Shown in pieces: positions 17,631-48,071 of a DNA stretch of 52,587 bases. Below the pieces are notes generated by a model that made no database searches, had not been told where the DNA came from, and worked only from the letters and a program-made list of their open reading frames with translations. The first letter of the stretch is position 1. Each line of letters begins with the position of its first letter. Position numbers and translations under genes: made by a program. Source of the stretch: Candidatus Nanoarchaeia archaeon (lineage in GTDB: Archaea; Nanobdellota; Nanobdellia; Woesearchaeales; DSVV01); contig JBMCCQ010000001.1 in assembly GCA_048618745.1 (NCBI GenBank), positions 1 to 52,587 of the forward strand, in the 5' to 3' direction.

Positions 17631-17641
17631 GGTGTGAAATA

Positions 17642-18034: not shown

Positions 18035-18036
18035 AA

Positions 18037-18585: not shown

Positions 18586-18590
18586 TTATA

Positions 18591-19253: not shown

Positions 19254-19262
19254 GTATTGAAA

Positions 19263-19733: not shown

Positions 19734-19735
19734 AA

Positions 19736-20323: not shown

Positions 20324-20324
20324 A

Positions 20325-21227: not shown

Positions 21228-21229
21228 AG

Positions 21230-21616: not shown

Positions 21617-22081
21617 ATGCTTACAAAAAGGAAGAAAAACACCAGGCAGAGAGGATATACTACCCATGGCTGGGGTAACAGGAAAAAGCACCGGGGTGCA
21701 GGCAACCGTGGCGGAAGAGGTATGGCTGGCACAGGTAAAAGAGGGAAAACAAGAAAACAACAAATTTTGGGTATTAAGAACTATTTTGGAAAACACGGCT
21801 TTAAAACCAAAAGAAGGACCTTTATCACCTCAACAAACATCCAGTATCTTGAAGATAAAGCCCAGTATCTTTTGAATAATAATATGGCAAAAGAAGAAAA
21901 TGGGTTCTTTGTTATAGACCTTGGTGACATAGGTGTTGATAAGCTTCTCTCTAAAGGAGAGCCTAAGCGTAAGTATAAGATTACTTGTTTTACTGCGAGC
22001 AAAGGAGCAGTTGATGCGGTAAAAAAAGCAGGTGGGGAAGTTACATTCAGTAATGTCGAAAGCATGGATGGCAAGGAATAA
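21617..22081 (+). CDS. rpl15: 50S ribosomal protein L15 (uL15)
   Basis: GYTTHGWGNRKKHRGAGNRGGRGMAGTGKRG is the uL15 glycine-rich N-terminus. Confidence 0.92.
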   Translation: MLTKRKKNTRQRGYTTHGWGNRKKHRGAGNRGGRGMAGTGKRGKTRKQQILGIKNYFGKHGFKTKRRTFITSTNIQYLEDKAQYLLNNNMAKEENGFFVIDLGDIGVDKLLSKGEPKRKYKITCFTASKGAVDAVKKAGGEVTFSNVESMDGKE

Positions 22082-28027: not shown

Positions 28028-29362
28028 TTAGTTCATATTTAACTGGGCGTTATTCTTTTTATCCTTCTGGTCTAATTTGAATATCTCAAGTGTCTTTTTG
28101 TTATCCTCACTAATTTTGGAGAGGTCTTGTGCCATAGTTGCAACTCTCTGCATTGCAGCAGTGGTTTCTTCCATTGAAGCAGATACCTCTTCTCCTCCGC
28201 TAGCATTCTCCTGGGCGACAGTGCTTACTTCATTAATTGCTTTATCTACGGTGGATGTTAGGTTTACCTGGTTATTTGTTTTTTCAACTATGCCTTTAAT
28301 CTGATTGTTCATATCATTAATTATTGCAGAAATCCCCTCGAGGGAGACAAGCGCATCATTGATAATAGTTGCGCCTTCATCAACTTCCTTAGTTCCGTTG
28401 TTAATAGAATTTACTGCATTATTTGTTGACCCTTGTATATCTGAGATTAATGCAGATATTTGTTGGGTGGCTTTTTGTGATTCTTCGGCAAGTTTTCTAA
28501 TCTCATCAGCAACTACACTAAAGCCTTTTCCGGCTTCGCCTGCTCTTGCCGCTTCAATTGTCGCGTTTAAGGCCAACAAATTAGTCTGCTCTGATATGTT
28601 ATTAATTACATCAATAATTTTTCCAATCTCTTGTCCTTTTTGTCCAAGCTCCTGAATAACGTTTGATGCCTCTCCTACTGTTGATTTTATTGATTTAATT
28701 TTCTGGTTTGCATCTCCTGCAGCTGTTCTTCCTTTACTTGCATTATTATTGGCGGTTTCAGCAGATTGCGACAAGGAATGGATGTTTTCTGAAACAGTCT
28801 TAATTACTGTGTTTAATTCTTCAATTGATTTGGTGGTTTCTGAAACAAGCTTGCTCTGCTTTTCAGAGCCTTTGGCAATTTGCTGCATAGTAGAAGAAAC
28901 CTGCTGTGCAGAAGAGTTTACTTCCTGGCTGGATGATGATAAATCCTGGGCTGAGCTTGCCAGGTTGGCCACATTTTTTGCCATCTTAACAAGAGCATCA
29001 TTTGTGTTTTTTGTAATATTATTTAGTGCCTGGGCCAACTGACCTATTTCATCGTCAGTTTCAACTTCAACCTTTTGTGTGAGATCCCCATCTGCCAGTT
29101 TGTTTGCGTGCTCAATGCATCTCTTAAGAGGTGTTGTAAGTTTGTGCTGAAAATAATATCCTGCTCCCCCGCCCACTACAAGCGCGAAAAGAATGAAAAT
29201 TCCCTGCGTTCCTAAACTATTTGGGAATAAAAGCCTTCCCACGTAATCTATTGTTACTACAATAATTGCCACAGCCAGAAAACCGGCAATCATTTTTTTC
29301 TCCATACTGCCGTTATGAGTTTTTGGCTTAGTCTCCGCTGGTTGATTTGCCTCTTTTTCCAT
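28028..29362 (-). CDS. Methyl-accepting chemotaxis protein (two-TM hairpin, HAMP, MCP signalling domain; no obvious periplasmic sensor)
   Basis: Two TM helices are separated by only a few residues. HAMP ([34 protein letters not shown]). Highly conserved hairpin tip ([40 protein letters not shown]). Confidence 0.92.
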
Positions 29363-30469: not shown

Positions 30470-30816
30470 CGCTTTTCCATTTTTTTAACTAATATCTGGT
30501 CTCCTCCATATGTTTGTGTATTGATTGACTCACACCTTGGGCACAGAAGCTCCCAGTAGCTGTTAATTAAGGTTTCTTCTCCGCAGTCTTTGCATTTTAA
30601 GTTTCCAGGTTTCTCTTTAATTCTTAGCCTGACTTCTATGTCATCAAAAAAACTATCTCTCTCTTTTAGATAATTAAAGTAGAATTTAATCGGCTCCGGA
30701 GCATAAGTTGTAAGCTTACCCACTTCAACAACAGCTATGCATCTTTTAAGGCCATTTTTCTCTATCAACTCCTTTATAATGTTAAAAAGAGATTTAGATA
30801 TTTCCAGTTCATGCAT
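30466..30816 (-). CDS. hypA: Hydrogenase nickel-insertion protein HypA
   Basis: N-terminal MHE nickel site and a CKDCG...CPRC zinc site. 116 aa. Confidence 0.88.
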   Translation of the reverse strand: MHELEISKSLFNIIKELIEKNGLKRCIAVVEVGKLTTYAPEPIKFYFNYLKERDSFFDDIEVRLRIKEKPGNLKCKDCGEETLINSYWELLCPRCESINTQTYGGDQILVKKMEKR

Positions 30817-30855
30817 TAGTTACTACAAGAAAATAAGATTATAAATAATTTTTGT

Positions 30856-31047
30856 TTAGGCATACTTGTCATAGAGGTCCTGTAGTTTTTGTTGGGCTAG
30901 TGAAGGCCCAAGCATTCCTCCCAGGAACTCCTTGCACTGGTCTAAAAACGCTTTTGGATCGCTGTCTGAAAATGAGTCAACTTTGTCAGCGCTAGCAACT
31001 CCCAAGATACCTGAAATAACTGATTTTGCTTCTTCTTTTACTCCCAT
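30856..31047 (-). CDS. Small hypothetical protein between hypF and hypA
   Basis: 63-aa ORF with an ATG start, same orientation and tight spacing within the hyp cluster. No family recognised. Confidence 0.4.
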   Translation of the reverse strand: MGVKEEAKSVISGILGVASADKVDSFSDSDPKAFLDQCKEFLGGMLGPSLAQQKLQDLYDKYA

Positions 31048-31119
31048 TTTTTGTTCCCTTTTTTTTTATTTTTAATATATTAATATAGTTTTGTTTCCTG
31101 AACTATATAAAAATTTTAT

Positions 31120-33312
31120 TCAATACTGATAAGTGTTGTCATTACTTATATTTAAATGTTTGTTTGCTATTATGCATTGCCCCACACATAGTCCCCCGTC
31201 TCCGACAGGGGCTACTTTAGGAAGATAAACTCCCCTGTCAAGCATATACTCTGTTATTATCCTGTTGTATGCTACTCCGCCTGAAAATACAATTGGTAAG
31301 TCTTGTCCCTTTACAATGTTATACAGCCCCTCTGCAAAGTATTTTTGGGCTGTAGCGGCAAGCCTTTGTTTGTTCAGGGAAAGGTTTTCCTTCAGGTATT
31401 CAATAAGGGGTGTGGTCATTAATATTTTTTTTCCTTTTCTTGTTTCAATAACAGGATTTATCTTATAGCTTCTTTCTGAGCTGCTTTCAAGCAGCATTGC
31501 AGGCCTGCCTTCATATGTAGCAATATCGCATATTCCAAGGAGGGATGCTACTGCATCTAAGACCCTGCCTGTGCTGCTGGTTGTAAAAACATTAAATCTT
31601 TGCTTAAGTTGTTTTAGGTAGAGCCTGGCCTCTTTTTCCGGGAATAGGTCGTGTTTTAGTAGTTCTTCTTCACTCATTATTTTGGAAAGTATTGCAAATA
31701 GCATTTTTTTTGGGTATTTTGTTGCCGAGTCTCCGCCTATCATGAATTGTGGTTCAAGGTGGCCGATTCTCTTAAAACAACCCTCATTTACCTTGAAAAC
31801 CTCACCCCCCCATAACGTCCCGTCATCGCCATATCCCATGCCATCGCAGGCTATACCCACATAATCTTTTAGATTGTTTTCTGCCGCGACCCCTGCAATG
31901 TGTGCCTTATGGTGTTGAACTTTTACAAGTTTTGCATTAAGCTCTCTGGAGAGCTCACTTGCAAATTCGTTGGTTTCATAGCCAGGATGCATATCTGTTG
32001 CAATAATTTCGGGATAGATTTGTGTAAGTTGCATAAATTTTTTTACTGTTTCTTTAAGGTAATTCATTGTTTTAAAATTTGAGCAGTCTCCTATGTGCTG
32101 CGATAGATAAACGCGGTTTTTGTCTGCAAGCGCGATTGTATTATTGGTTTCTCCTCCAAGAGCCAGCGTGGGTCTGCATTGTTCTGAAATTTCAATAGGG
32201 GTTGGTACAAATCCGCGCGACCTTCTAAGAAGTAGCGGTTGACCGCGTATAAGCTTTAATACTGAATCATCACATCTGTTAACAATACTTCTTTCGTGTG
32301 TCAGAAAAAATTCTGCAAGATTCTCTTCTTTTGAAATTGGCTCTCCCGGCATGTTCAGGGAAGTAAATACTAACGGCTCATTTAAGTAATCAAACAACAG
32401 ATAATGTAAGCCGGTGTAGGGAAACATTGCTCCTATGCTGTCAAGCTCAGTTACTTCCGTAAGCATATGCTCATTTTTTTTCTTCATAATAACAATAGGG
32501 CTTTTCGGAGATTTCATCTCCTCGATTTCTTCTTTTGTAGGAACAGCATACTTTTTTAGCATATTAAGGTCCTTAAACATAACTGCAAACGGCTTATGGG
32601 GGCGCTTAAGAAGTTTCCTTACTTGCATTACTGCATTTTTTGTGCAATTAGAAACAAGATGCATTCCTCCTATTCCTTTTATTCCAATACACTTGTTTTT
32701 TTTAATTAACTCCGTTGCCTTTTTAATGGCTGCCTCCTCAGAAGTCTCTATGGGGTTTTTTTTATTATCCACAAGCTTTAGATGCGGCCCACAGCGGGGG
32801 CATGCAATTGTTTGGGCATGATATCTTCTATCAGCGGGGTTTGTATATTCCTTACGGCATTCGGGACACATTTGAAAATCTTTCATAGAAGTGGTTTCTC
32901 TGTCATACGGCAGTCTTTGTGTTATGGAATACCTTGGTCCGCAGTCTGTGCATGTTATAAAATAATACCTGTACCGCCTGTTTTTGGGGTTTCTTAGCTC
33001 ATTAAGACAATTGGAGCATACATAAATATCAGGGGGAAGCAATGTCTTTCCTTTGCTCTTACTGCTTTTTTTTATGGTAAATGAAGTATAAGTACCGGGA
33101 GCAATTTTATGAGTTTCTATAGAATGAATTTTTGCTAGAGGGGGCGGAGTTTTTAGTGCTTCAAGTATTGATGATTTCTTGTCAACAATAATTTTGACAC
33201 CATAACCTTCATTTGTGATTTCCCCTTTTAGATCATTTTTTTTAGCTATCCTGTAAATAAAGGGCCGAAAACCCACTCCCTGAACCCTCCCCTTTACAAT
33301 TAGACAATACAT
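31120..33312 (-). CDS. hypF: [NiFe]-hydrogenase maturation carbamoyltransferase HypF
   Basis: N-terminal acylphosphatase domain (VKGRVQGVGFRPF), two zinc-finger CxxC pairs (CSNC...CTDCGPR; CPEC...CPRCGP), and YrdC-like and Kae1-like domains. The ATG at 33312 is preferred over the TTG at 33324. Confidence 0.92.
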   Translation of the reverse strand: MYCLIVKGRVQGVGFRPFIYRIAKKNDLKGEITNEGYGVKIIVDKKSSILEALKTPPPLAKIHSIETHKIAPGTYTSFTIKKSSKSKGKTLLPPDIYVCSNCLNELRNPKNRRYRYYFITCTDCGPRYSITQRLPYDRETTSMKDFQMCPECRKEYTNPADRRYHAQTIACPRCGPHLKLVDNKKNPIETSEEAAIKKATELIKKNKCIGIKGIGGMHLVSNCTKNAVMQVRKLLKRPHKPFAVMFKDLNMLKKYAVPTKEEIEEMKSPKSPIVIMKKKNEHMLTEVTELDSIGAMFPYTGLHYLLFDYLNEPLVFTSLNMPGEPISKEENLAEFFLTHERSIVNRCDDSVLKLIRGQPLLLRRSRGFVPTPIEISEQCRPTLALGGETNNTIALADKNRVYLSQHIGDCSNFKTMNYLKETVKKFMQLTQIYPEIIATDMHPGYETNEFASELSRELNAKLVKVQHHKAHIAGVAAENNLKDYVGIACDGMGYGDDGTLWGGEVFKVNEGCFKRIGHLEPQFMIGGDSATKYPKKMLFAILSKIMSEEELLKHDLFPEKEARLYLKQLKQRFNVFTTSSTGRVLDAVASLLGICDIATYEGRPAMLLESSSERSYKINPVIETRKGKKILMTTPLIEYLKENLSLNKQRLAATAQKYFAEGLYNIVKGQDLPIVFSGGVAYNRIITEYMLDRGVYLPKVAPVGDGGLCVGQCIIANKHLNISNDNTYQY

Positions 33313-33640
33313 TATAATTCCCAAATATTGGTATGTTTAAATTTTTAATTATTTTTGAATATCATATTGATAAGTTAAATAAAATTAATAAGTTGAAACA
33401 TGAAAAAATCTTGCAAAATAAGTTGTGTTCTGTTGTATAACTTCATAAATACAAAAATTTTTAAATCGAAAACTATTAATATAAGTAAAAATCCAGTTTA
33501 TTAAGCGTACTGGAAATCCCGGGAGGAGTAATGGGCTCCGTTGCAGCTCCATTTTTTGATGGAAGCGTGGCTTCACAAAAAAAGAGGTTTCACAAATTAA
33601 TTTGTTAAGGGATTATCTTTAAAAGAGAGGTATAGCAATA

Positions 33641-33994
33641 ATGGCAAAGATAATGACTGTGGAGGATTCAGGTTTAATCCGCTCAATTATAAGAAAAATT
33701 CTTATAAGTGAAGGGCACGAAATTATTGAAGTGTCTTCAGGTAAGGATGCTGTTATCAGATATGAAAAGGAAAAACCTGCTCTAGTGTTTATGGATATAA
33801 ATTTGCCTGATATTTCAGGGCTGGATGCAACTAAAGAGATTATTGATTTTGACCCTTCAGCAAAAGTAGCAATGTGCACAATTGTCGATAAGGATGAATA
33901 TAAACAAAAGGCAAAAGAGATTGGTGCAAAAGCCTATCTGGTAAAACCTTTTAGCAGAAGGGAAATACTTGATGTGCTAAATGATTATTTGTAA
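33641..33994 (+). CDS. CheY-like single-domain response regulator (divergent)
   Basis: REC fold: MTVEDSG (ED instead of DD), FMDINLPDISG (phospho-Asp), AMCT, and LVKPF (Lys). Confidence 0.85.
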   Translation: MAKIMTVEDSGLIRSIIRKILISEGHEIIEVSSGKDAVIRYEKEKPALVFMDINLPDISGLDATKEIIDFDPSAKVAMCTIVDKDEYKQKAKEIGAKAYLVKPFSRREILDVLNDYL

Positions 33995-34014
33995 ATTAAA
34001 AATGAGGTGAAAAA

Positions 34015-34374
34015 ATGAGTGCCACTGTATTAATTGTTGACGATTCCGCCTTTATGAGAAACATGTTGAAAAACATAATTACTCAGGCAGGGGGTACAGT
34101 AGTAGGAGAGGCTGCAGACGGGCAACAGGCAATTGATAAAACTAATGAGTTGTCACCGCAGATAATTTTCCTGGATATAATGATGCCAAATGTTAACGGA
34201 TTGGAAGCTCTTAAGCAAATAAAAAGCCAGCATCCTGATGTGAAAGTTGTAATGTGCACTTCAGCAGGCCAGGAGAAAATTATTGGTGAGGCTGTAGAAG
34301 CAGGGGCTTCAGAATTTGTAAAGAAACCGTTTAAGCCTGACGAAATATCACAGGTAATTTCCAAGCTTTCATAA
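34015..34374 (+). CDS. cheY: Chemotaxis response regulator CheY
   Basis: VLIVDDSAFMRNML...FLDIMMPNVNGLE...VMCTS...KKPF is a canonical CheY. GAGGTGA Shine-Dalgarno upstream. Confidence 0.9.
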   Translation: MSATVLIVDDSAFMRNMLKNIITQAGGTVVGEAADGQQAIDKTNELSPQIIFLDIMMPNVNGLEALKQIKSQHPDVKVVMCTSAGQEKIIGEAVEAGASEFVKKPFKPDEISQVISKLS

Positions 34375-34389
34375 AAGAGGTGAAAAAAT

Positions 34390-34764
34390 ATGACATCAGT
34401 ATTAGTTGTGGACGATTCAATTTTTATTAGGAACATTTTAAAGGATATGCTGGGCAGATTGGGCGTGCAAGAAATTAAGGAAGCCTCCGATGGCCTCGAA
34501 GCTGTGGAAAAAGTCAGGGAAGGTAACTTTGACTTAATTTTTATGGATGTAATGATGCCTAAAATGGATGGGCTACAGGCGATTAAGGAAATAATGGCCA
34601 TTAACCCTGAGCAAAAAATTGTAGTCTGTACATCAGCAGGCCAGGATAAAATTGTAAATGAAGCAGTAGAATCCGGTGCGAAAGAGCTTATCCTCAAGCC
34701 CTTTGATTTGGAAGAGGTAAGAGGCATAGTGGATAAGTATCTAGGGGAAACAAGTGAAGGGTAA
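34390..34764 (+). CDS. cheY: Chemotaxis response regulator CheY (second canonical copy)
   Basis: VLVVDDSIFIRNIL...FMDVMMPKMDGLQ...VVCTS...LKPF. GAGGTGA Shine-Dalgarno upstream. Confidence 0.9.
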   Translation: MTSVLVVDDSIFIRNILKDMLGRLGVQEIKEASDGLEAVEKVREGNFDLIFMDVMMPKMDGLQAIKEIMAINPEQKIVVCTSAGQDKIVNEAVESGAKELILKPFDLEEVRGIVDKYLGETSEG

Positions 34765-34774
34765 GGGTTTTCTC

Positions 34775-35806
34775 ATGAACTCTGTATTTATTGTCGACGG
34801 CTCTGCATTAACCAGAAAAATATTGCGCGAGACAATAGGCCATAGTAAAAAGTTCAAGGTAGGTGGTTATGTTACAGATGCAGATTACGCTCTATTTGAA
34901 ATAAAGAAAAACAATCCTGATCTTATAATACTTGATATTGAAAGAGACAGTGGCAGGGGGCTGAAATTCTTAAAAGATCTTATGGAAGAATTCCCAAAAC
35001 CAGTTCTTGTTATAAGTGATCATACTGATGATGAATCAAAAATGACCTTTGAAGCTCTTGAGGCAGGGGCAATCGATTTTTTATTAAAACCAAAGAATCT
35101 CAATTTGAATGGAAGATTTACGGATTTTAAAGAAGCTCTTGTTTCTAAATTGGAAGTAGCCCTGGAATCCAAACCCAAGGTTATTGAGAATAAAAAAAAA
35201 AAAGTTATTCATAAATTCGGAAAAACAGCAAAACGTGTGGTGGTATTTGGTGCTTCAACCGGCGGACCATCAACTATAAAGAGACTTTTTTCTGAGCTGC
35301 CCGGGGACCTTCCATTCACTATTCTTGTAGTCCAGCATATGCCTTCCGGCTTTACAAGGTCTTTTGCAGAGCACTTGGACAAAATAAGTGATTTTAAGGT
35401 AAAGGAAGCAGAGGTGGGAGAAAAACTAGTGGATAATACCGCCTATATATGCCCTGCAGACTATCACATGTCCATTGAGCTTGATCAAGAAATGGGGCAC
35501 AGCCTTATCCAGCTCACCCTGGGAGAAAGGTTACATGGAGTCAGGCCAAGTCTTGACTATCTAATGAAAAGCGTGGTTCCTGTTTTTGGTGAAAAGGTGG
35601 TCATGGTAGTTCTTACTGGTATGGGTAAAGACGGCCTTGAGGGGGCTAAGCTTGTTAAGGCCCAAAAAGGGAGGGTGCTTGTGGAATCAGAAGATTCATG
35701 CATAATTTATGGAATGCCCAAGGCAATAGTGGATAAAAACCTGGCTGATGCGGTAGTGAGCCTGGATAAACTGCCTGTTTCAATAGTTCAGGAAGTAGAA
35801 AATTAA
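34775..35806 (+). CDS. cheB: Chemotaxis methylesterase/deamidase CheB
   Basis: N-terminal REC domain plus a methylesterase domain with GASTGGP (Ser), VVQHMP (His) and GMGKDG (Asp). The ATG at 34775 is preferred over the GTG at 34754. Confidence 0.92.
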   Translation: MNSVFIVDGSALTRKILRETIGHSKKFKVGGYVTDADYALFEIKKNNPDLIILDIERDSGRGLKFLKDLMEEFPKPVLVISDHTDDESKMTFEALEAGAIDFLLKPKNLNLNGRFTDFKEALVSKLEVALESKPKVIENKKKKVIHKFGKTAKRVVVFGASTGGPSTIKRLFSELPGDLPFTILVVQHMPSGFTRSFAEHLDKISDFKVKEAEVGEKLVDNTAYICPADYHMSIELDQEMGHSLIQLTLGERLHGVRPSLDYLMKSVVPVFGEKVVMVVLTGMGKDGLEGAKLVKAQKGRVLVESEDSCIIYGMPKAIVDKNLADAVVSLDKLPVSIVQEVEN

Positions 35807-35820
35807 TTGAGGGAATCAGT

Positions 35821-36189
35821 ATGGACTTAGAAGAATTCAAAAAACAATTTATAACAGAGGCAAAAGAGAAGCTTTCAGAGGCTGATGAGTGCCTGGATAA
35901 ACTCCAGAAAGGATATGATAACAATACACTGGTTGATTTGAAACGAAGTTTTCATACGCTTAAAGGAAATAGTGCTGCCATGGGGTTTCAAAAATATTTT
36001 GAACTTGCAAAGGCAGGTAATGACCTTGCTCAAAGAGCAATTGATAAAGAAGTAGAACTCGATGGTAATGTGGTTTCATTACTTAAAAAGTGTAAAGAAG
36101 AACTAAATAAAGGGTTGCAATTCATTGAAGAGGGCAATCCTGAAAGCCTTACCGCAGATGATTTAGTTAATAAAATCCAAAATGTTTAA
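35821..36189 (+). CDS. Stand-alone Hpt (histidine phosphotransfer, CheA-P1-like) protein
   Basis: 122 aa with SFHTLKGNSAAMGF, the Hpt phospho-His motif. It lies immediately upstream of cheA, which has its own P1 domain. Confidence 0.8.
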   Translation: MDLEEFKKQFITEAKEKLSEADECLDKLQKGYDNNTLVDLKRSFHTLKGNSAAMGFQKYFELAKAGNDLAQRAIDKEVELDGNVVSLLKKCKEELNKGLQFIEEGNPESLTADDLVNKIQNV

Positions 36190-36200
36190 TAAATGAAAAA

Positions 36201-38198
36201 ATGGGTGACGATCAATATAAAGAACAATTTTTATCTGAAGCCAGAGATTACATTGATTCAATTAATGATGATCTCTTAAATTTTGAAAAAGATCCAAAAA
36301 ATGAAGATGTAATCCATAATCTATTCCGTTCTTTTCATACATTAAAGGGAAATGCTTCTACGATGGGCTACACTAAGTATTCTGAGCTGGCCCATCACCT
36401 TGAGGACCTTCTTGATAAAATAAGAAACAAGCAAATTGAAGTGAATTCTGATATTGTTGATGTACTCTTCAGAGGTGCGGATGCTCTCGAGCAGGGGTTA
36501 CAGGTGATTTCTGACGATGACCCTGATAATGTTGATGATTCCTTAACAGAGGAGATTACAAAACTGCTTCAGAATTCAAAAGGAAAACAACAAGAAGTAC
36601 AGGAAGATGAAGGGCTCTCATTTAGTGACGAGGATAATGAAAAAATAAAGAATGCTAAAGAAAATGGAAAGAAGGTTTTTCGCATAACGCTTGTTTTTGA
36701 TGAAGGCAATGATTTGAAAGGAGTAAAGACTCTTTTGCTACTCAGGGATTTGGGTAATGAGGGAGAAATTCTGAAAACTTCACCTGAAAAAGAAAAAATC
36801 AGCTCTGGACAGTTCAAAACACATGTATATATAATTATAGCCTCAGAGAGTGAAGAGAATATTAAAAAGCTGGCTGAAAATGTAACCAGCGCGGTATCAA
36901 ATGAGGTAACTGAATTAGCTGAGGAAGAACTTAATGGTGGCTCTTTAGAAGGAAAAGAAAAACAACAGGAGCAAAAAGGCACTGCAAAAGATGGTTCAAA
37001 AGAAAGCGATAAGGAAAAAATTGCAAAACAGCAACAGGAAGCGATGACTAAGCAACTGCAGAGTGTAAAAATTGATATTAAAAGTCTGGATAATCTTATG
37101 GATCTGGTCGGTGAGCTCCTTATTAATAAAGTAAGGCTGGAGCAGTACGCTCAGGAATCTAAAGATAAGGAATTTACAACATTGATTGATACATTAACAA
37201 GGCTGACCCTGGATATACAGGATGAAGTAATGAAGCAAAGGATGATTCCTATTGGAAACATATTTAACAGGTTCCCAAGAATGGTTAGGGACTTAGCAAA
37301 AAAGGAAAATAAAAGCATTAACCTTAATATTGAAGGGCAGGATATTGAATTTGACAGGACTGTGCTTGATGAAATTGGTGACCCGCTTGTTCATTTATTG
37401 AGAAATTCTGTGGATCACGGCATTGAAGCTCCCGAAGAAAGGAAAAAGGAAGGAAAGCCTGAAAACGGAACAGTTATGCTTACGGCCAGGAAGGAGAAAA
37501 CAAATGCAATTATTGAAATAACTGATGACGGTAAGGGTATTGATGCACAAAAGGTAAAAGAAAGCTGCATTAAAAAGGGTGTTGTAACTCAGGAAGAAGC
37601 TGATGCAATGGATGAAAAAGAATTGCGAAGGTTAATTTTCAGGCCAGGGGTAAGTACAAGTAAAAAAATTACTGAGGTTTCGGGCCGCGGAGTTGGCATG
37701 GATGTTGTTGAGACTAAAATAAAAAAACTCGGCGGAAATGTTAAACTTGATTCTAAAGAAGGGCAGGGGACAACTATAAAGCTTCAGCTACCTCTTACGC
37801 TTGCAATTGTAAGCTCATTAATTATAAGAGTTGATGATTCAAAGTATGCTTTGCCGCTCTCAACAATTGTAAGGACAGTAAAAATAAAACATAAGGACAT
37901 AAGGACTATAGGGGGTAACGAGGTGTTTCTTTTAATGAACGAAGACATACCTTTGGTCCGGCTTAGAAACCTGTTGCACGGAACCCCTCCAAAAGAGCAG
38001 GAATATTATACAGTAATTGTTGTGGACAAGGACGATAGTAAAATAGGTATTGTAGTTGATTCGATTGATGCACAACAGCAGGTGCTTATTAAAAACCTTG
38101 ACGAGATGGTCAAGGGAATTAAGGGGCTCGGTGGTGCAACCATTTTGGGCGATGGCAGAGTTGCTCTTATACTGGATATAGCCACTTTGTTTGATTAG
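36201..38198 (+). CDS. cheA: Chemotaxis histidine kinase CheA
   Basis: P1 (SFHTLKGNASTMGY), a charged linker, P3, P4 HATPase (HLLRNSVDHGIE; DDGKGID; GRGVGMDVV) and a P5 CheW-like domain. Confidence 0.94.
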   Translation: MGDDQYKEQFLSEARDYIDSINDDLLNFEKDPKNEDVIHNLFRSFHTLKGNASTMGYTKYSELAHHLEDLLDKIRNKQIEVNSDIVDVLFRGADALEQGLQVISDDDPDNVDDSLTEEITKLLQNSKGKQQEVQEDEGLSFSDEDNEKIKNAKENGKKVFRITLVFDEGNDLKGVKTLLLLRDLGNEGEILKTSPEKEKISSGQFKTHVYIIIASESEENIKKLAENVTSAVSNEVTELAEEELNGGSLEGKEKQQEQKGTAKDGSKESDKEKIAKQQQEAMTKQLQSVKIDIKSLDNLMDLVGELLINKVRLEQYAQESKDKEFTTLIDTLTRLTLDIQDEVMKQRMIPIGNIFNRFPRMVRDLAKKENKSINLNIEGQDIEFDRTVLDEIGDPLVHLLRNSVDHGIEAPEERKKEGKPENGTVMLTARKEKTNAIIEITDDGKGIDAQKVKESCIKKGVVTQEEADAMDEKELRRLIFRPGVSTSKKITEVSGRGVGMDVVETKIKKLGGNVKLDSKEGQGTTIKLQLPLTLAIVSSLIIRVDDSKYALPLSTIVRTVKIKHKDIRTIGGNEVFLLMNEDIPLVRLRNLLHGTPPKEQEYYTVIVVDKDDSKIGIVVDSIDAQQQVLIKNLDEMVKGIKGLGGATILGDGRVALILDIATLFD

Positions 38199-38203
38199 GT
38201 GTA

Positions 38204-38854
38204 ATGTTAATGGCAGAGAAAATAAAAAATGAAGGGCTGAGTAACCTTCAAAAGGATGCATTAAAAGAAATAAGCAGTATTACAACAGGCAATGCCACAG
38301 CAGCTTTATCCAAACTTGTTAAAAAAAAAGTTAATATTCAGATTCCAAAAGCTGAGTTTTACGATAAAAATGAGCTATGTGATATTCTCGGGGGGAAGGA
38401 TAATGTAGTTGTCTCTATCTATTGTGGTATAACAGCAGACTTGACTGGCCAGGTTCTATTCTTATTTAAGAGAAAGGATGCTTTGGATTTAGTTAAGATG
38501 CTCACCGGAAAAAAAATGAACACAGAATATTTGGACAGGTATTCTGAATCAGCGTTTGGAGAAATGGCGAATATTTTTACTGGCTCGTATCTTAATGCGC
38601 TCTCAGAGCTTTTTCAGATTACAATACTTCCCGGCATACCTATAGTTGCAACCGACTATGTGGGGCCGATTATTGATTATGTCTGGGGAAGAATTGAAAA
38701 CCCGGAGAAAAAAATGCTTTGTTTTACAACAAAAATATCTCTTGATGACTACAATATAAACGGTGATTTTGTTTTTATGTTTGACGCCCAAAGCTATCAT
38801 AAAGTTTTAAAGAAGCTGGAGAGTGACTATGGTGTTAAAAGCAGAAGAGGCTAA
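38204..38854 (+). CDS. cheC: CheC-family CheY-P phosphatase (first active site degenerate)
   Basis: The second site SAFGEMAN-x22-P is intact. The first site reads DALKEISS-x22-P, with Ser in place of the catalytic Asn. Confidence 0.88.
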   Translation: MLMAEKIKNEGLSNLQKDALKEISSITTGNATAALSKLVKKKVNIQIPKAEFYDKNELCDILGGKDNVVVSIYCGITADLTGQVLFLFKRKDALDLVKMLTGKKMNTEYLDRYSESAFGEMANIFTGSYLNALSELFQITILPGIPIVATDYVGPIIDYVWGRIENPEKKMLCFTTKISLDDYNINGDFVFMFDAQSYHKVLKKLESDYGVKSRRG

Positions 38855-38915
38855 GAATAGAAAATATTATAAATTATTAATTGTGGTAAAATTTTAGCAG
38901 AAACGGAGTGATCTT

Positions 38916-39554
38916 ATGGATAACCAATACGATGTAAAAGACATGGAGCTGGATGCAATCAAAGAAGTTGGAAACATAGGTGCGGGAAATGCTGCCGTTT
39001 CATTATCAAAAATTCTTAATAAAAAAATAGAAATGGATGTTCCTGAAGCCGACTTTATACCTCTTAATAATTTTGCAGAAAAATTCGGGGGCCCTGAAAG
39101 GATAGTTATGAGTATTTATTCTCCAATTGTGGGAGAGCTTACAGGAGAAACACTTTTCATATTTTCAAGGGATTGTGCAATGGGGCTTGTAGACCTAATG
39201 ATGGGCAATGAAATTGGTCATACTAAAATTATGGACGAGCTAAGTGAATCTGCCTTTAAGGAAATGGCAAATATCTTTATTGGCTCCTATTTAAATGCAA
39301 TTTCAGATATGATTAACCTCAAGATTATGCCTGGTGTTCCGGTTGTAGCAACAGATATGGTTCAGGCTATACTTGATTCACTTCTTATGAGAATGGGTGA
39401 ATACGCCGATAAGGTGCTTTGCAACAAGGCGAAAATTTCAATTGAAGGTCATCCAATAAAAGGTGATTTTATTTTCATCTTTGATTTAGAAACAATGAAA
39501 GTATTACTAAATAAGATGCATAACTCCTATAATTCTGAGCTGGACAAGAGTTGA
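38916..39554 (+). CDS. cheC: CheC-family CheY-P phosphatase (both active sites intact)
   Basis: DAIKEVGN-x22-P and SAFKEMAN-x22-P both fit the [DS]-x3-E-x2-N-x22-P consensus. GGAGTGA Shine-Dalgarno upstream. Confidence 0.9.
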   Translation: MDNQYDVKDMELDAIKEVGNIGAGNAAVSLSKILNKKIEMDVPEADFIPLNNFAEKFGGPERIVMSIYSPIVGELTGETLFIFSRDCAMGLVDLMMGNEIGHTKIMDELSESAFKEMANIFIGSYLNAISDMINLKIMPGVPVVATDMVQAILDSLLMRMGEYADKVLCNKAKISIEGHPIKGDFIFIFDLETMKVLLNKMHNSYNSELDKS

Positions 39555-39555
39555 A

Positions 39556-40395
39556 ATGGTAGATGAAATTGTTGTAGGAATGGGAAGGTTATATGTGGTT
39601 AATGAGCCTGTCACACTAACCTGTATTGGGCTTGGCTCCTGTATAGGGCTGATGGTTTATGACAGGCAGAAAGGTATTGCAGGTCTTGCACATATAATGC
39701 TTCCTGACAGCAGCAACGCCAAATTTACGCCAGTGGAGCAAAGCTCTCTGCTTGCTGAAAACGATGATTATTCTCTTAAAACTATTACTAATTCTCTTGA
39801 GAATAAGGGCTATGAGATTAAATACGTTGCAAAAAATGTAGATGATGCTGTCGAAAAATTCAAGGAGATTAATCCTTATTTGTTGCTGCTTGATTTCAAA
39901 TTAGCAGGGGAGGACACCTGTTCATTAGTAAGTGAGTTGTTTAATCTTAACAGCATGGCAAATATTGTTGTCGCAAATACTGATAAAAATTATTCTTATC
40001 TGGATATATTAAGTAACGGGGCAATAGATGTAATTCCAAAACCACTCACAAAAGATAAGCTGGAGCTTACCCTGGATATAGTTACTTCTCTGCGCTACTT
40101 AAGATTCGCCGATGTGGCAATTGAGAAAATGCTTAACAAAATGTACTCTATGGGATGTGAGCACAGAAACTTAAGAGCCAAGGTTGTTGGAGGTGGAAAT
40201 ATGTTCACTCACTCGCAGGTTTCAATGCGTAATATAGGTAAAGAAAATACCGGAAAAGTTCTTGAAAATTTAAAAAACAGAAATATTCCCATTGAGGCAG
40301 AATGCACTGGAGGTAATCTGGGGCGCACAGTGAGGTTCAATACACAAGATTTTACTGCTGTTATTACAAATAAAGAAGGCCGTAAAACGATTTAG
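39556..40395 (+). CDS. cheD: CheD chemoreceptor glutamine deamidase with an internally inserted receiver (REC) domain
   Basis: CheD N-terminal part (TLTCIGLGSCIGLMVYD...GLAHIMLPDS) and C-terminal part (YLRFADVAIEKML...AKVVGGGNMF...IGKENTG...ECTGGNLGRTVRF) are separated by about 115 aa carrying REC motifs (LLAENDD, LLLLDFKL, VVANT, IPKPL). Confidence 0.85.
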   Translation: MVDEIVVGMGRLYVVNEPVTLTCIGLGSCIGLMVYDRQKGIAGLAHIMLPDSSNAKFTPVEQSSLLAENDDYSLKTITNSLENKGYEIKYVAKNVDDAVEKFKEINPYLLLLDFKLAGEDTCSLVSELFNLNSMANIVVANTDKNYSYLDILSNGAIDVIPKPLTKDKLELTLDIVTSLRYLRFADVAIEKMLNKMYSMGCEHRNLRAKVVGGGNMFTHSQVSMRNIGKENTGKVLENLKNRNIPIEAECTGGNLGRTVRFNTQDFTAVITNKEGRKTI

Positions 40396-40398
40396 AAA

Positions 40399-41280
40399 AT
40401 GATGGATAATAATTTTATATCTATAATAAAAGTAGATGACCCAGAAAACTGGCAGTTTTTAAAGGGGCAAATTAAAAAGTATTTGAATTTTGATACACAT
40501 AATTACAGGGACACATTTTTAATGCGCAGGGTTGAATGCAGACTTAGGAAGCTTCAGATAAATTCGTATATGGAATATGCCCGTCTTCTTTCAGCAAGTG
40601 ATGAAGAGAAAAAGCTTCTTGAAAAAGAGTTGACAATCCACGTAACCCGGTTTTTCAGGGATAAAAGCCTTTTTAAGGAATTAATGAACTGGATTTTTCC
40701 ACAATTTATCAAGGAAAAAATGGAGATGAATAATTATAGCATTTCTGTGTGGTCAGCCGGGTGCAGTTCAGGGGAAGAAGCCTATTCAATTGCTATTGTT
40801 TTTAAGGAAGTTCTTGGAGACAATATGAAAAATTTCCTTGTAAAAATCCATGGCACGGACCTTGAGCCAAAAACCATCGAGAGGGCAAAGACCGGAGCAT
40901 ACGAAGAATCCGCATTGATGGAGATGCCAGATGAATTAAAAGAAAAGTATTTCACTTATCATGAAGGTCTTTATTATGTTGTCCCGGAAATAAAGAATAT
41001 GGTCAACTTTGAGGTTGGAGATATTTTAAATCCTTCTGGGGAGATGATATATGATATTATTTTTTGCAGAAACACGGTTATTTATTTTGAGAAAAAAACC
41101 AAACAGGATTTGTATGAAAGCCTTTTTAGCAAACTTAAGAAAGGCGGATTCCTGGTTCTCGGGAAAACAGAATTTCTGGATGGCTCAGCAAAACCAAAGT
41201 TCCAGATGTATAATGCTAATGAAAGAATCTACAGAAAACCATTTAGCGAAACAAGCGCGATGGATTATATCAATGCGTAA
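40399..41280 (+). CDS. cheR: Chemotaxis protein methyltransferase CheR
   Basis: TRFFRD, VWSAGCSSGEEAYSIAI, IFCRNTVIYF and LKKGGFLVLG motifs. Confidence 0.92.
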   Translation: MMDNNFISIIKVDDPENWQFLKGQIKKYLNFDTHNYRDTFLMRRVECRLRKLQINSYMEYARLLSASDEEKKLLEKELTIHVTRFFRDKSLFKELMNWIFPQFIKEKMEMNNYSISVWSAGCSSGEEAYSIAIVFKEVLGDNMKNFLVKIHGTDLEPKTIERAKTGAYEESALMEMPDELKEKYFTYHEGLYYVVPEIKNMVNFEVGDILNPSGEMIYDIIFCRNTVIYFEKKTKQDLYESLFSKLKKGGFLVLGKTEFLDGSAKPKFQMYNANERIYRKPFSETSAMDYINA

Positions 41281-41355
41281 AATATATATATAAGTGTTTC
41301 TAATACAAACATAAAAAAGGGGGAATGACTGTTATTCAGTATTTCTAAGATAAAA

Positions 41356-41970
41356 ATGGCGGAAGAAAAAGATTCACAAAAAAAAGAGGAACAAAAAGAA
41401 TATTCAGAAAGGCAGCTCGTTGTGTTCAACATTGGCCAGGAAGAATTCGGTGTTGATATTAACGAGGTAAACAGTATTATTAAGATGGTTCCGATTACCC
41501 GCATACCAAATGCGCCTGCCTTCGTAGAAGGAGTAATAAACCTGCGGGGCAGAATTATTGTTGTAGTTGACCTTGCCAAGAAACTTGGGTTGCAGGGCAA
41601 GGAGAGAGACAAGGATACAAGGATTATTGTTGTAGAAACCAGTCAGAATATGGTTGGTATGATAGTGGACCATTCAAGAGAGGCAATCAGGGTTTCTGAA
41701 GAGCAAATAGAGCAGGCCCCCGGATTAATTACGCAGAAAATTAACTCAGATTTTTTGGAAGGGGTTGCAATTGTTCCCTCTGGCTCTAAGGAAGAGCAGC
41801 AAAAGAATGAGCAAAACAACAACAGGCTTCTGATACTTCTTGACCTGGCAAAAATCCTTAATGAAGAAGAGATGGATTCTGTACAGAAAACGCAGGAGTC
41901 CGCTGAAAACCAGAAAGGTCACCAGCAGCAAAGCGAAGGGCAGGAGAAGTCGGAAGATGAACAAAACTGA
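41356..41970 (+). CDS. cheW: Chemotaxis coupling protein CheW with a Gln/Glu-rich C-terminal tail
   Basis: QLVVFNIGQEEFGVDINEVNSIIKM..ITRIPNAPAFVEGVINLRGRIIVVVDL is the CheW signature. The tail is about 50 aa of low complexity. Confidence 0.92.
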   Translation: MAEEKDSQKKEEQKEYSERQLVVFNIGQEEFGVDINEVNSIIKMVPITRIPNAPAFVEGVINLRGRIIVVVDLAKKLGLQGKERDKDTRIIVVETSQNMVGMIVDHSREAIRVSEEQIEQAPGLITQKINSDFLEGVAIVPSGSKEEQQKNEQNNNRLLILLDLAKILNEEEMDSVQKTQESAENQKGHQQQSEGQEKSEDEQN

Positions 41971-41979
41971 GGCAGGAAA

Positions 41980-42390
41980 GTGAAAATAAAAAACTGGATG
42001 AATAGAAATATTAAAACCACTTCCAAAGACAGCTTAGTCCTTGATGCTGCAAAGAGCATGAAGCAAAATCTGGTTGCAGATTTGGTAGTGGTTGAAAACG
42101 GGCATCCTATTGGAATTCTTACTGAAAGGGATATTTGTTATAAGGTTGTAGCAATGAACAAAGACCCGCAATCTACTAAAGTGGATGATATTATGACAAA
42201 AACTTTGATTACTGCCCATATTGATGACACAATTTCTGAAGTATCAAGAAGGATGGGTCTTGCAAAGATTAAGCAGATACCAATTATTGATGATAAGAAC
42301 ACTCTTGTCGGGATAATCACTTCCTCTGACCTTGTAAGGGTTGTTTCACATTTCCAGCGGGACCTTGATTCAATGGTTAAGTCCAAATAG
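41980..42390 (+). CDS. CBS-pair domain protein
   Basis: 136 aa with two CBS repeats (ADLVVVENGHPIGILTERDI; IKQIPIIDDKNTLVGIITSSDLV). GTG start 10 nt after the cheW stop. Confidence 0.8.
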   Translation: MKIKNWMNRNIKTTSKDSLVLDAAKSMKQNLVADLVVVENGHPIGILTERDICYKVVAMNKDPQSTKVDDIMTKTLITAHIDDTISEVSRRMGLAKIKQIPIIDDKNTLVGIITSSDLVRVVSHFQRDLDSMVKSK

Positions 42391-42428
42391 TAAAAAAATT
42401 TATATTCTCTCTTGTATTTGTTTATTTT

Positions 42429-43625
42429 ATGGATAGATTTAAAGAGATTATTACTGCTTTTGCAAAACAGTATCTGGGGGGAATAGCAGGAGAAATCCTT
42501 CTTGAGGATTATGCAAAAAAATTTAACATCTCTGACCTTTCAATGCTTACAAAAAAAGAGCAGCAGAAGTTTATAGATGCTTTTTTGTGGGGTGTTTTTC
42601 ACAGGCACCTGCCCCCTGAAAGAATTAATTCATTAAGGCTTCAGCTTAATCTTCATTTTTGTATTGACAATGCAACTGAAGCAATTTCAGGAATGCTTGG
42701 GAAGAAAATTTTACTAAAGCCCCTTGATGTAAAATCTCAAACATTTGACAATTTCGAAAAGATTATCAATAATCTGGGAGAAGGAGTTATTGTTATACCT
42801 GTGAAGCTTTCCGGCTACATCACAGCCACCTTGCTAATCTTCATTTTCAGGGACAGCGCAATAACTTTAGGTAATATCATGCTAAAGTCAATGCTTGGAA
42901 TTGACAAAACTGATGAGTTTCTCGACGAGATGAAACAGTCTGCAATAAAAGAGTTTTTTAACATACTTATTCCTACATTTGCCGACACAATAGCTAATAC
43001 CTTAAAGCAGGAAATTTTTATTGATATGCCTGAAACAGATATTACTGATTCTCAAAAGCAGATTGATACGGCAATGAGCAAAATCTCTTTTTCCGGAGAT
43101 GAAAATTACGGGATAAAAAATATTATTTCTACTCCTCTTGGAATATATATTGATGATAAGCATTATGTTGAAGGCATGGGTTTTCTGTTAATGGAATCAG
43201 CAAGCTCAGTAATATCACAGTCTATTGAAAAAACAGGGATTAAAAAGGATGATACGCTTGAGCAGATGGACTTACAGCAGATTGAGATTCCAAAAGATAC
43301 TAACAGGTACCGGGCCATAACTACATTCCTTAATAACTTTACAAAGGATGATTCCACAAAAATAATAGATAATTTGATGGATGACCTTGGCATAAGCAGC
43401 CTAAACAATGTATCAGTAGGGCTTAGGCGAAAGCTTATCAACAGGCTTTTGGAAGAGCATTTTTCTGGACACTCTCCAAAAGTTTATGAGTTTATACAAA
43501 AGGGGTGCGAAAGGATATTTAATATTGGTACAAAAGCAGCAGAGGATGAGGGGCAGCAAACACAGGAGGACTCTTTGTCTAAAATGCTTAACAAGGTACA
43601 GAATTTAAAAGATGACACTCAGTAA
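42429..43625 (+). CDS. CheC-like domain protein with unknown N- and C-terminal extensions
   Basis: aa 171-201, SAIKEFFN-x22-P, exactly fits the CheC/CheX/FliY consensus. The preceding half aligns with the CheC first repeat but lacks the catalytic residues. About 70 aa N-terminal and 130 aa C-terminal are unassigned. Confidence 0.7.
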   Translation: MDRFKEIITAFAKQYLGGIAGEILLEDYAKKFNISDLSMLTKKEQQKFIDAFLWGVFHRHLPPERINSLRLQLNLHFCIDNATEAISGMLGKKILLKPLDVKSQTFDNFEKIINNLGEGVIVIPVKLSGYITATLLIFIFRDSAITLGNIMLKSMLGIDKTDEFLDEMKQSAIKEFFNILIPTFADTIANTLKQEIFIDMPETDITDSQKQIDTAMSKISFSGDENYGIKNIISTPLGIYIDDKHYVEGMGFLLMESASSVISQSIEKTGIKKDDTLEQMDLQQIEIPKDTNRYRAITTFLNNFTKDDSTKIIDNLMDDLGISSLNNVSVGLRRKLINRLLEEHFSGHSPKVYEFIQKGCERIFNIGTKAAEDEGQQTQEDSLSKMLNKVQNLKDDTQ

Positions 43626-45527: not shown

Positions 45528-48071
45528 ATGACAGAAAAAGACTTTGAAGAAGACCAGAACACTCAAAATGCTTCTCAGGAGAAAATGGAAGCTAATAAGG
45601 CTGTAGAAGAAGCTACAATAGCCCCTGAAGCCTTTAGAAAAGTAATAAGGCCTGTTGAAGAGGAGATGAAAAGCTACTACCTGGACTATGCTATGTCTGT
45701 GATTATTGGCAGGGCCTTGCCTGATGTTAGAGACGGCCTCAAGCCTGTGCATCGTCGTATTATTTACTCTATGAACCTGCAGGGGATGCAGCATAATAAG
45801 GCGTATAAAAAATGTGCAAGAATTGTAGGTGATGTGTTAGGTAGGTATCACCCTCATGGTGATTCTTCTGTTTATGATGCTCTTGTAAGAATGGCGCAGA
45901 ACTTTTCTTTAAGATATCCTTTAATTGACGGGCATGGTAACTTCGGAAGTGTTGACGGCGACAGTGCAGCTGCCATGAGATATACTGAAGCACGGATGGC
46001 AAAAATTTCTGAAGAGCTTGTCTCGGACATAGATAAGGAAACAGTTGACTTTATGGACAACTTTGACGGGACGTTACAGGAGCCTACTGTGCTTCCCTCA
46101 AAGCTTCCAACCCTTCTTGTTAATGGGACAAGCGGCATTGCTGTTGGAATGGCAACAAGCATCCCGCCTCATAATATTACAGAAATATGCAAGGCTACAA
46201 TTTCACTTATTGATAATCCTGAGCTTGAAACAAAAGCACTGATGGAAACAGTTAAGGGCCCTGATTTCCCGACAGGGGGTATTATTACCGGTACAAGCGG
46301 AATTCAGAGAGCGTATGCAACAGGCCATGGGAAAGTTCTTGTTAAATCAAAAATTCATGAGGAAACCGTAAGAAACAGGAACTGTTTGATTGTAACCGAG
46401 ATACCCTACATGGTTAATAAGGCCATGCTTGTTGAAGAAATCGCCAATCAGGTAAATAATAAGAATATAATGGGGATTGCGGATATAAGAGATGAATCTG
46501 ACAGGACAGGAATGAGGGTAGTGATTGTCCTGAAACGCGAGGCAAACAAGGATGTTGTTCTCAACCAGCTATACAAATTTACAAGGCTTAAGACAACAAT
46601 TGGGATGAACCTTCTGGCCCTTGTTGATAATGCGCCCAAGGTTATGAACCTAAGGGAAATTATTGGGCATTTTATTTCTCACAGAAGAAGCGTTGTTGTA
46701 AGAAGGACAAAATATGATTTAAGAAAGGCAAGAGAAAAAGAGCATATTCTGCAAGGCCTTGTAATTGCACTTGACTATCTTGATTCAGTAATAAAGCTGA
46801 TAAGAGGCTCAAAGTCTGCTTCAGAAGCTTCACAAGGCCTGATGGAAAATTATGGTCTAAGCGAGCGCCAGGCAAAAGCTATACTTGAAATGAGGCTGCA
46901 AAGACTTACCAATATGGAGCAAAACAAGGTTAGGGATGATTTAAAGGAAACCCAGAAACTGATAGGTGAGCTGGAATCAATACTTGCCTCAAATGAAAAG
47001 ATAAACCAACTCATTAAAGATGAGCTTAATGAAATTATCAATAATTACGGGGATAAGAGAAAAACAGAGATCACTTTTGAAGATGAAGATGATGACATAG
47101 AAATTGAGGACCTAATAGAAAAGGAAGATGTTGTTGTAACGATAAGTCACTCAGGCTATATTAAAAGAACCCCGCTTAAGACTTACAGGGCTCAAAAAAG
47201 AGGGGGAAAGGGTATTATCGGGGCCACTACCTCCAAAGAAAATGATGTAGTAGAGCATCTCTTTATTGCAAACACCCATGATTATATATTGTTTTTTACT
47301 GACGACGGCCAGGTCCATTGGCTTAAAGTATGGAAAATACCTGAATCCGGAAGGTATAGTGCTGGAAAGGCCATTGTTAACCTTCTCCAGCTTTCAAAGG
47401 GAAGAACAATTGCTGCTTTTGTAAAAATAGATAAGTTTGACGAAAAGCAATATCTGTTAATGGCTACAAAAAACGGGCTTGTGAAAAAAACAAGCCTGAA
47501 GGCATATTCCAGGCCAAGGGCAGGCGGAATAAAGGGAATTCTTATTGAGCCAGGGGATGAGCTAATAAATGTCATAAAAACAGACGGCACAAAGCACATA
47601 CTTCTCGCTTCCCGCGACGGGATGGCAGTTAAATTTGATGAAAATAATGTAAGGTCAATGGGAAGGGTTTCAAGAGGTGTTAAGGGTATTAACTTAAGGA
47701 AAGGCGATGAAGTTGTTGGCATGGTAAGCGCTGAAGAAGATAAAACTCTATTAACTATCACGGAAAACGGTTATGGCAAGAGAACAAATATTGATGATTA
47801 CAGGCTGGTTAGCAGGGGAAGTATAGGAGTAAAAAATATTGTATGTTCACAAAGAAACGGCAAAGTTGTAGCAGTAAAATCTGTCTCTCCCGACGATGAA
47901 ATTATGTTTATCTCTTCAAAAGGTATAATGATCAGAACAACTGTTGAAGGGATTTCAGTAATAGGAAGAAACACCCAGGGTATGCGGCTTATGAAATTAG
48001 CTTCTGATGACAATGTTGTTGCAGCCGCAAGAATAGCTTCAAATAATGATACTGAGAAAGAAAATTCATAA
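45528..48071 (+). CDS. gyrA: DNA gyrase subunit A
   Basis: [33 protein letters not shown] and [10 protein letters not shown] (catalytic Tyr), plus C-terminal beta-pinwheel repeats. 847 aa. Confidence 0.95.

Follow-up and report, generated by a model that had tools for sequence, protein, structure and literature searches.

Can the chemotaxis deamidase CheD hold a complete receiver domain inside its own fold, and if so, does that domain place the enzyme under the control of the chemotaxis kinase? The question is raised by a single cheD gene on a stretch of DNA of 52,587 nucleotides (nt) from a Candidatus Nanoarchaeia archaeon (positions 1 to 52,587 of the forward strand of contig JBMCCQ010000001.1, GenBank assembly GCA_048618745.1; the whole stretch is hereafter called the window). 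A sequence-only reading of the window had described the product of this gene as a CheD split by a CheY-like receiver with every key residue in place, and had proposed that CheD would thereby become directly dependent on phosphorylation. The architecture and its conservation make it near-certain that an ancient in-frame insertion put a complete, CheY-like receiver fold into a loop of CheD; the proposed dependence on phosphorylation is weakened by what has become of the phospho-acceptor residues across the family.

The gene starts 2 nt past the stop codon of the cheC upstream of it (Table 1), and its product is a CheD by profile, catalytic residues, fold and CheC-binding pair. The Pfam CheD family (PF03975) matches amino acids (aa) 182-270 (E 7.5e-25; 87.6 bits against a cut-off of 25), and the CheD models of NCBIfam give a split match to aa 6-54 and 183-267, the equivalog cut-offs being missed (best 133.6 against 251 bits) a consequence of the split match and of sequence divergence. 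Comparison with PDB sequences by phmmer likewise aligns residues 6-54 and 61-142 of Thermotoga maritima CheD (2f9z_C) to aa 6-54 and 183-267. In an alignment of 34 distinct full-length proteins with the same nested architecture, to which all residue tallies given here refer, the catalytic residues C29 and H46 are invariant (34/34). The third reported catalytic residue of CheD is a Thr; the aligned position is Cys23 in the window protein and varies among Cys, Ser, Thr, Gly and Ala in the family. Of the pair implicated in CheC binding, every nested homologue has F217, and M216 is kept in at least 90% of them; the equivalent Met-Phe pair of Bacillus subtilis CheD mediates binding to both CheC and receptors and is conserved only in species that possess CheC (PMC3513319). 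The gene therefore encodes a functional-looking CheD, a predicted chemoreceptor glutamine deamidase and partner of CheC, which is catalytically equipped and can probably bind CheC.

Between the two CheD segments, approximately 125 residues replace a loop of approximately 6 residues that lies between residues 54 and 61 of T. maritima CheD. The insertion point is about 10 residues past the catalytic His, between the strand that bears it and the first helix, in a surface loop of canonical CheD, as had been supposed from the sequence. The Pfam Response_reg family (PF00072) matches aa 65-171 (E 3.5e-10; 40.5 bits against a gathering score of 30.2), so that CheD and receiver matches, both above threshold, are nested as the sequence-only reading had placed them, and T. 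maritima CheY aligns to aa 77-170 in the phmmer comparison. An AlphaFold2 model of the window protein, run on a 62-sequence alignment, has a mean predicted local distance difference test score (pLDDT) of 94.6 and a predicted template modelling score (pTM) of 0.91; it contains a regular beta1-alpha1...beta5-alpha5 succession at aa 63-177 (beta1 at 63-67, alpha1 from 71), with CheD strands and helices on either side. A Foldseek search of the PDB with this model returned 2f9z_C across its whole length (template modelling score normalised to the target, TM(target), 0.93; root-mean-square deviation 2.4) and the receivers of CheY, Spo0F and VicR at TM 0.80-0.85. Both folds are thus intact in the model, with CheD closed around the inserted domain.

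The architecture is a lineage-specific feature, not a peculiarity of one protein. When 5.8 billion proteins were searched, 17 homologues matched at full length (271-285 aa, 32-71% identity, approximately 100% coverage), the remaining matches being CheDs of approximately 160 aa, and a profile search of 1.84 billion representatives (50% identity clustering) contributed approximately 19 more at full length, besides 3 fragments. The shared architecture and insertion point are found in at least 34 distinct proteins; CheDs longer than about 250 aa, for which the sequence-only reading had advised a search, thus do occur elsewhere. Members with organism names all belong to DPANN archaea (Ca. Nanoarchaeia, Nanobdellota, Nanoarchaeota and Ca. 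Woesearchaeota). For 11 members the contig was read, in NCBI, ENA, JGI and Logan records: cheC lies directly before the nested cheD, within a chemotaxis (che) cluster, in all 10 homologous loci with identifiable neighbours, a count that leaves out P0124, whose 2.2-kb contig offers no identifiable neighbours.

This distribution bears on whether the open reading frame could be a chimeric assembly, or the outcome of a frame error, that fused cheD to a cheY gene. The contig does come from a metagenome-assembled genome (MAG) and has cheY genes nearby, but the same in-frame architecture recurs in the whole set of distinct proteins, with the 11 contigs read coming from the four sources of records named above, and one close relative (P0002) occurs on three separate ENA assemblies. 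Furthermore, the CheD sequence on either flank of the insert comes together as an ordinary CheD fold, and BLASTP of the insert against one neighbouring CheY (34015-34374) gave no significant similarity. An artefact is effectively refuted, with a residual probability that we consider negligible.

In a neighbour-joining (NJ) tree of the CheD core with only Clostridial outgroups, the nested proteins form one clade; that clade failed (0/200 bootstraps) once the closest canonical-length CheDs were added, including P0138 from a "Nanoarchaeota" MAG, and canonical-length DPANN CheDs interleave with nested ones. The tree, based on 145 columns, is too weak to separate one gain and later losses from noise; one gain followed by clean losses, or merely weak phylogenetic signal, would fit it equally. 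Because the insertion point is shared, together with an insert motif in the beta5 region (G155..D158.I160..P163.T165..K168) common to the whole family, we favour a single gain.

Whether the insert is a working receiver depends first on its active-site residues, which were placed in register with Escherichia coli CheY (by a MAFFT alignment that included the CheYs and CheB of the window) and with T. maritima CheY; this register agrees with the secondary structure of the AlphaFold2 model. Of the five canonical receiver residues, the window protein has three. The earlier statement that every key position is occupied stands for the phospho-acceptor D113 and for K162-P163; it does not stand for the acidic pair, where E68-N69 takes the place of Asp-Asp, or for the Thr/Ser at the end of beta4, where the residue is N141. 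The D70-D71 pair is two positions off, at the positions of CheY F14 and S15 at the start of alpha1, and T142 is one position off, at that of CheY A88. The insert of the window protein is a receiver by profile and by fold that departs from the canonical set at two of five residues and whose set is poorly conserved among its orthologues.

Across the family the departure is far greater. The acceptor Asp is found in 17 of the 34 members, the others having Ser (7), Glu (6), Asn (2), Ala (1) or a deletion (1); the Thr/Ser position is kept in 10/34, the Lys in 3/34 (two others have Arg), and the second acidic position is acidic in 8/34. The full five-residue set occurs in no member (0/34), and PF00072 still matches only 19/34. 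Mean pairwise identity is 22% for the insert versus 52% and 42% for the two CheD segments, from which the insert is estimated to evolve about twice as fast as the CheD core. In the extreme case of P0132, none of the five residues is present (L-E / A / G / E), and yet AlphaFold2 predicts a CheD plus receiver fold (pLDDT 94.8, pTM 0.90) for which Foldseek returns CheD at TM 0.93, Spo0F and CheY at approximately 0.75, and the pseudo-receiver (PsR) domain CikA-PsR also among the structural matches, although the alignment used for P0132 held receiver-positive members and fold retention is possibly over-stated. The aspartate-less receiver (ALR) class includes 17 of the 34 relatives and not the window protein, in which D113 is present; the insert of the window protein is described here as an atypical receiver in a largely pseudo-receiver family, and is strictly no ALR.

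Loss of catalytic residues and rapid evolution are what would be expected of a mere passenger, that is, a receiver tolerated in a permissive loop, functionless in itself and in slow decay. Shortened or eroded inserts also occur (P0160, 255 aa; P0169, 263 aa; P0179, 257 aa, which lacks the beta3 region), and the canonical-length DPANN CheDs interleaved in the weak NJ tree would fit repeated loss. Such decay is difficult to reconcile with an insert length of approximately 115-125 aa kept in nearly all 34 members at divergence down to approximately 30% identity, with the conserved insert-specific motif of the beta5 region, or with the five genes compared from the clade of the window protein, each of which is exactly 837 nt long at amino acid identity down to 51%. 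In these five genes the proportion of nonsynonymous differences in the insert (pN 0.19-0.42) is well below that of synonymous differences (pS 0.60-0.72), an estimate of selection that is qualitative only (pN < pS), with dS saturated and segment-wise dN/dS unusable. The arrangement of the two domains is also predicted with confidence (pTM 0.90-0.91 for the models). We consider a passenger improbable. The comparison indicates instead that the fold and length of the insert are under purifying selection and that its phospho-acceptor chemistry is not.

Since fold and length are kept but phospho-acceptor chemistry is lost, we infer that the conserved job of the insert is independent of phosphorylation and that, as a family, the inserts are atypical or pseudo-receivers. 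Aspartate-less receivers are commonly constitutive or serve in regulation that does not involve phosphorylation (PMC4395418). The reading that we favour, with moderate confidence, is that the insert is a docking, allosteric or regulatory module, possibly a CheY mimic linked in cis. In B. subtilis, phosphorylated CheY (CheY-P) strengthens the binding of CheC to CheD and so titrates CheD off receptors (PMC3513319). In the nested loci the gene for the putative partner is always at hand, cheC being the immediate upstream neighbour of cheD. CheC is a phosphatase of CheY-P and must bind a surface of CheY. A CheY mimic directed at CheC is suggested because of these three circumstances together: CheY-P tunes the CheC-CheD interaction, CheC binds CheY, and cheC always precedes the nested cheD. 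The insert would then act as a built-in CheY mimic that gives CheD a second, CheY-like contact with CheC; the result could be a two-point contact between CheC and CheD, or alternatively the insert could contact the CheY-binding P2 domain of CheA. In either case the CheY-P/CheC/CheD adaptation loop known from B. subtilis would be hard-wired or retuned by the insert.

Several points weigh against the docking or regulatory module, besides the saturation of dS and the composition of the P0132 alignment already mentioned. The window protein (P0001) and its relatives P0002 and P0004 keep both Asp and Lys, and P0003 and P0008 keep the Asp with Arg at the Lys position. Most of the 14-member clade to which the window protein belongs conserves E68, D70, D113 and N141, and such retention could indicate a pocket that is still functional. 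Finally, the docking or CheY-mimic role is an inference, and its specific partner is speculative.

The same conservation is the starting point for the opposite possibility, that the receiver is live: D113 would be phosphorylated by the P1 domain of CheA or by a free histidine phosphotransfer (Hpt) protein, switching deamidase activity or binding to CheC or receptors, and CheD would be a CheB-like receptor-modifying enzyme gated by phosphorylation. In addition to the PF00072 match and the presence in register of D113, K162-P163 and, at the first acidic position, E68, this possibility gains from a stand-alone, P1-like Hpt encoded between cheB and cheA in the window. Its phospho-His motif, SFHTLKGN, is identical to that of CheA P1, because of which it looks like a free copy of P1, and the gene is kept in the operons of the clade of the window protein (window, L001, L008-L011); it is absent from the more distant nested-CheD loci L004, L006 and L007 on the contigs examined. 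A tandem CheD-receiver protein with five canonical residues (P0195) makes coupling of the two domains evolutionarily plausible.

The proposal that the free Hpt accompanies only those inserts that have both Asp and Lys was ruled out, as the Hpt is found across the clade P0001-P0014, including the loci of P0007, with Ser at the Asp position, and P0013, which has no Lys. Within that clade the Asp is lost in close relatives that have the same operon and Hpt (Ser in P0007, Asn in P0006 and P0014, Glu in P0012), and family-wide the Asp is missing from half of the members and the Lys from 31/34. The window protein itself has Asn at the equivalents of both D13 and T87 of CheY. In contrast, all three stand-alone CheYs on the contig have the canonical residue in register at the acceptor Asp, Thr and Lys positions, and their acidic pair reads DD except in the first, where it reads ED. 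Accordingly, the suggestion that CheD is made directly phosphorylation-dependent by its insert has lost ground: the phospho-acceptor set is preserved in none of the proteins in which the Cys and His of CheD are preserved in all, a protein that lacks all five residues is still predicted to adopt a receiver fold, and the Hpt also stands beside an Asp-less insert. We regard a live receiver as unlikely. Residual phosphorylation is possible in the subclade of the window because Asp113, Lys162 and Glu68 survive there, and it is not a conserved function. For P0001, P0002 and P0004 (and with Arg, P0003 and P0008), phosphorylation by CheA P1 or the free Hpt through an unusual E-x-D / D / N / K pocket, with kinase-gated deamidation or sequestration of CheD by CheC, is likewise unlikely, though by no means remote.

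The remainder of the locus is consistent in its gene order. In the clade of the window protein, synteny is fixed as three cheY genes, cheB, free Hpt, cheA, two cheC genes, the nested cheD, cheR and cheW, followed by a CBS-pair protein, a protein of approximately 400 aa, and then (Asn synthase) and gyrA. The possibility that the insert is the sole CheY of the operon, suspected since an Hpt gene and no cheY lies between cheB and cheA, was rejected when the three canonical cheY genes at 33641-34764 were recognised. The chemoreceptor encoded on the opposite strand bears Gln-containing methylation-site motifs (QE/QQ), namely [24 protein letters not shown]; [16 protein letters not shown] and TVAQENAS.

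Table 1. Positions of cheD, its segments and key residues, and of other genes mentioned in the text (window coordinates)
Feature	Position	Strand	Remarks
Chemoreceptor	28028..29362	-	HAMP and MCPsignal domains; candidate substrate of CheD deamidation
HypB/CobW-type GTPase	29810-30469	-	hydrogenase maturation region, 29810-33324
hypF	31120-33324	-	hydrogenase maturation region, 29810-33324
cheY (first)	33641-33994	+	stand-alone
cheY (second)	34015-34374	+	stand-alone
cheY (third)	34390-34764	+	stand-alone
cheB	34754..35806	+	receiver domain and methylesterase
Hpt	35821..36189	+	stand-alone, P1-like, 122 aa; between cheB and cheA
cheA	36201..38198	+	Hpt-P2-dimerisation-HATPase-CheW
cheC paralogue	38204..38854	+	216 aa; first motif degenerate (DALKEISS, Asn replaced by Ser), second intact
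cheC	38916..39554	+	212 aa; adjoins cheD upstream; both [DS]x3Ex2N phosphatase motifs intact; Pfam CheC/CheX
cheD with nested receiver-fold insert	39556..40395	+	279 aa and TAG stop
CheD N-terminal segment, aa 1-54	39556..39717	+	aligned to T. maritima CheD 6-54
GLGSC, catalytic Cys29	39640-39642	+	motif match to T. maritima CheD
AHIMLPDS, His46	39691-39693	+	motif match to T. maritima CheD
Inserted receiver (REC) fold, aa 63-178	39742..40089	+	Pfam PF00072, AlphaFold2 topology, Foldseek match to CheY
E68	39757-59	+	equivalent of CheY D12
N69	39760-62	+	equivalent of CheY D13
D113	39892-94	+	equivalent of CheY D57 and T. maritima CheY D54; acceptor Asp, end of beta3
N141	39976-78	+	equivalent of CheY T87 (Ser in T. 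maritima CheY); end of beta4
K162-P163	40039-44	+	K162 equivalent of CheY K109; end of beta5
CheD C-terminal segment, aa 183-279	40102..40392	+	from RFADVAI; Pfam CheD 182-270; 2f9z_C residues 61-142
GGGNMF, CheC-binding pair Met216-Phe217	40201-40206	+	role from PMC3513319
cheR	40399-41280	+	directly downstream of cheD
cheW	41356-41970	+	downstream of cheD, after cheR
CBS-pair protein	41980-42390	+	136 aa; GTG start; between cheW and 398-aa protein
398-aa protein	42429-43625	+	end of operon; no Pfam family above threshold
DNA gyrase A subunit (gyrA)	45528-48071	+	bacterial type, 847 aa

The window holds a complete chemotaxis set (33641-43625) plus the chemoreceptor, and the contig also has ribosomal genes (9590-22081). 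With ribosomal proteins S4e and L32e, a Sec61-type SecY and aRF1 among its markers, the window is clearly archaeal. The CBS-pair protein, kept in the operons of the clade of the window protein, suggests that a metabolite (adenosyl-ligand) input feeds into the chemotaxis cluster. The 398-aa protein has counterparts of 392-401 aa, likewise with no Pfam match, at the same position in L001, L009, L010 and L011; it contains a perfect CheC phosphatase consensus, S-x3-E-x2-N-x22-P (SAIKEFFN...P, approximately aa 171-201), and a sub-threshold Pfam CheC match (E 0.084, aa 168-196), and could represent either an extended CheC-like protein, the third of its kind here, or an adaptor that takes the place of CheF. 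Hydrogenase maturation genes adjoin the che operon, hypF being adjacent again in L001, L008, L010 and L011, and accompanied in L001 by hypA and a CobW-type GTPase gene. Synteny of the bacterial-type gyrA extends to L001 and L009-L011. Two relatives have transposase genes (DDE_Tnp families, IS66) in or beside their che clusters, namely L007 (3908-5059, between a cheW-cheY pair and cheB) and L011 (231-1601).

Compared with canonical CheD, as known from T. maritima (PDB 2F9Z, with CheC) and B. subtilis, the window protein shares the Cys of GLGSC, the His of AH(I/V)MLP, the GGxxMF pair and the fold, as well as a cheC neighbour in a che cluster and a Gln-bearing chemoreceptor as candidate substrate; it differs in that canonical CheD is a single domain of approximately 155-170 aa, whereas the window protein has a separate receiver fold within its 279 aa. 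The nearest functional analogues, CheB (receiver plus receptor methylesterase/deamidase) and CheV (CheW plus receiver), are likewise adaptation modules fused to a CheY-like domain, and the CheB of the window is an example within the same operon. The receiver of CheB and CheV is terminal, separated by a linker, and keeps the full set of phospho-acceptor residues, whereas that of the window protein is nested within the catalytic domain and belongs to a family in which this chemistry is degenerate. P0195 (294 aa) also has CheD and receiver on one polypeptide, but its receiver is C-terminal, follows a linker and has the residues DD / D / T / K. Two other proteins encountered, P0142 (344 aa) and P0268 (337 aa), are double-CheD proteins. 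Close parallels to the insert are the ALRs and pseudo-receivers (RitR, CikA-PsR, KaiA-PsR and FrzS, among others; PMC4395418), in which, as in half of the nested family, the fold is kept and active-site residues are replaced; unlike ALRs, the window protein keeps its Asp.

Literature searches returned no description of a receiver nested in CheD, an ALR included, in agreement with the earlier impression that such wiring had not been described, and a 2018 census of archaeal response-regulator architectures makes no mention of CheD. A 2022 survey lists DPANN as being without chemotaxis systems (PMC9680633), and according to a 2024 paper one Woesearchaeota MAG expresses CheABCD, the architecture going unremarked (PMC11606122). 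The protein identical to that of the window is labelled by NCBI as "MAG: response regulator [Candidatus Nanoarchaeia archaeon]"; automated annotation has missed the nested architecture because such proteins are labelled either "response regulator" or "CheD".

The nested CheD is a real and unusual domain architecture whose link to the CheC/CheD adaptation loop is plausible. It is a clean case of a receiver gained by nested insertion rather than by end-to-end fusion, and the gradient within the family, from near-canonical to fully degenerate pockets, is useful for understanding how receivers evolve into pseudo-receivers. Of the three adaptation systems of chemotaxis, CheD/CheC is the one least understood. 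Its logic in B. subtilis is that CheY-P alters the affinity of CheC for CheD, and a CheD with a built-in CheY-like fold offers a natural experiment on this loop. Should the insert dock onto CheC or CheA, a feedback loop of three proteins would have been condensed into cis; should it still be phosphorylated, it would represent a new route to kinase control of a receptor-modifying enzyme and, in the subclade of the window, a third, CheB-independent, phosphorylation-controlled adaptation enzyme, created by domain insertion in genome-reduced DPANN archaea. The nested CheD also adds detail to the sparsely documented chemotaxis machinery of DPANN.

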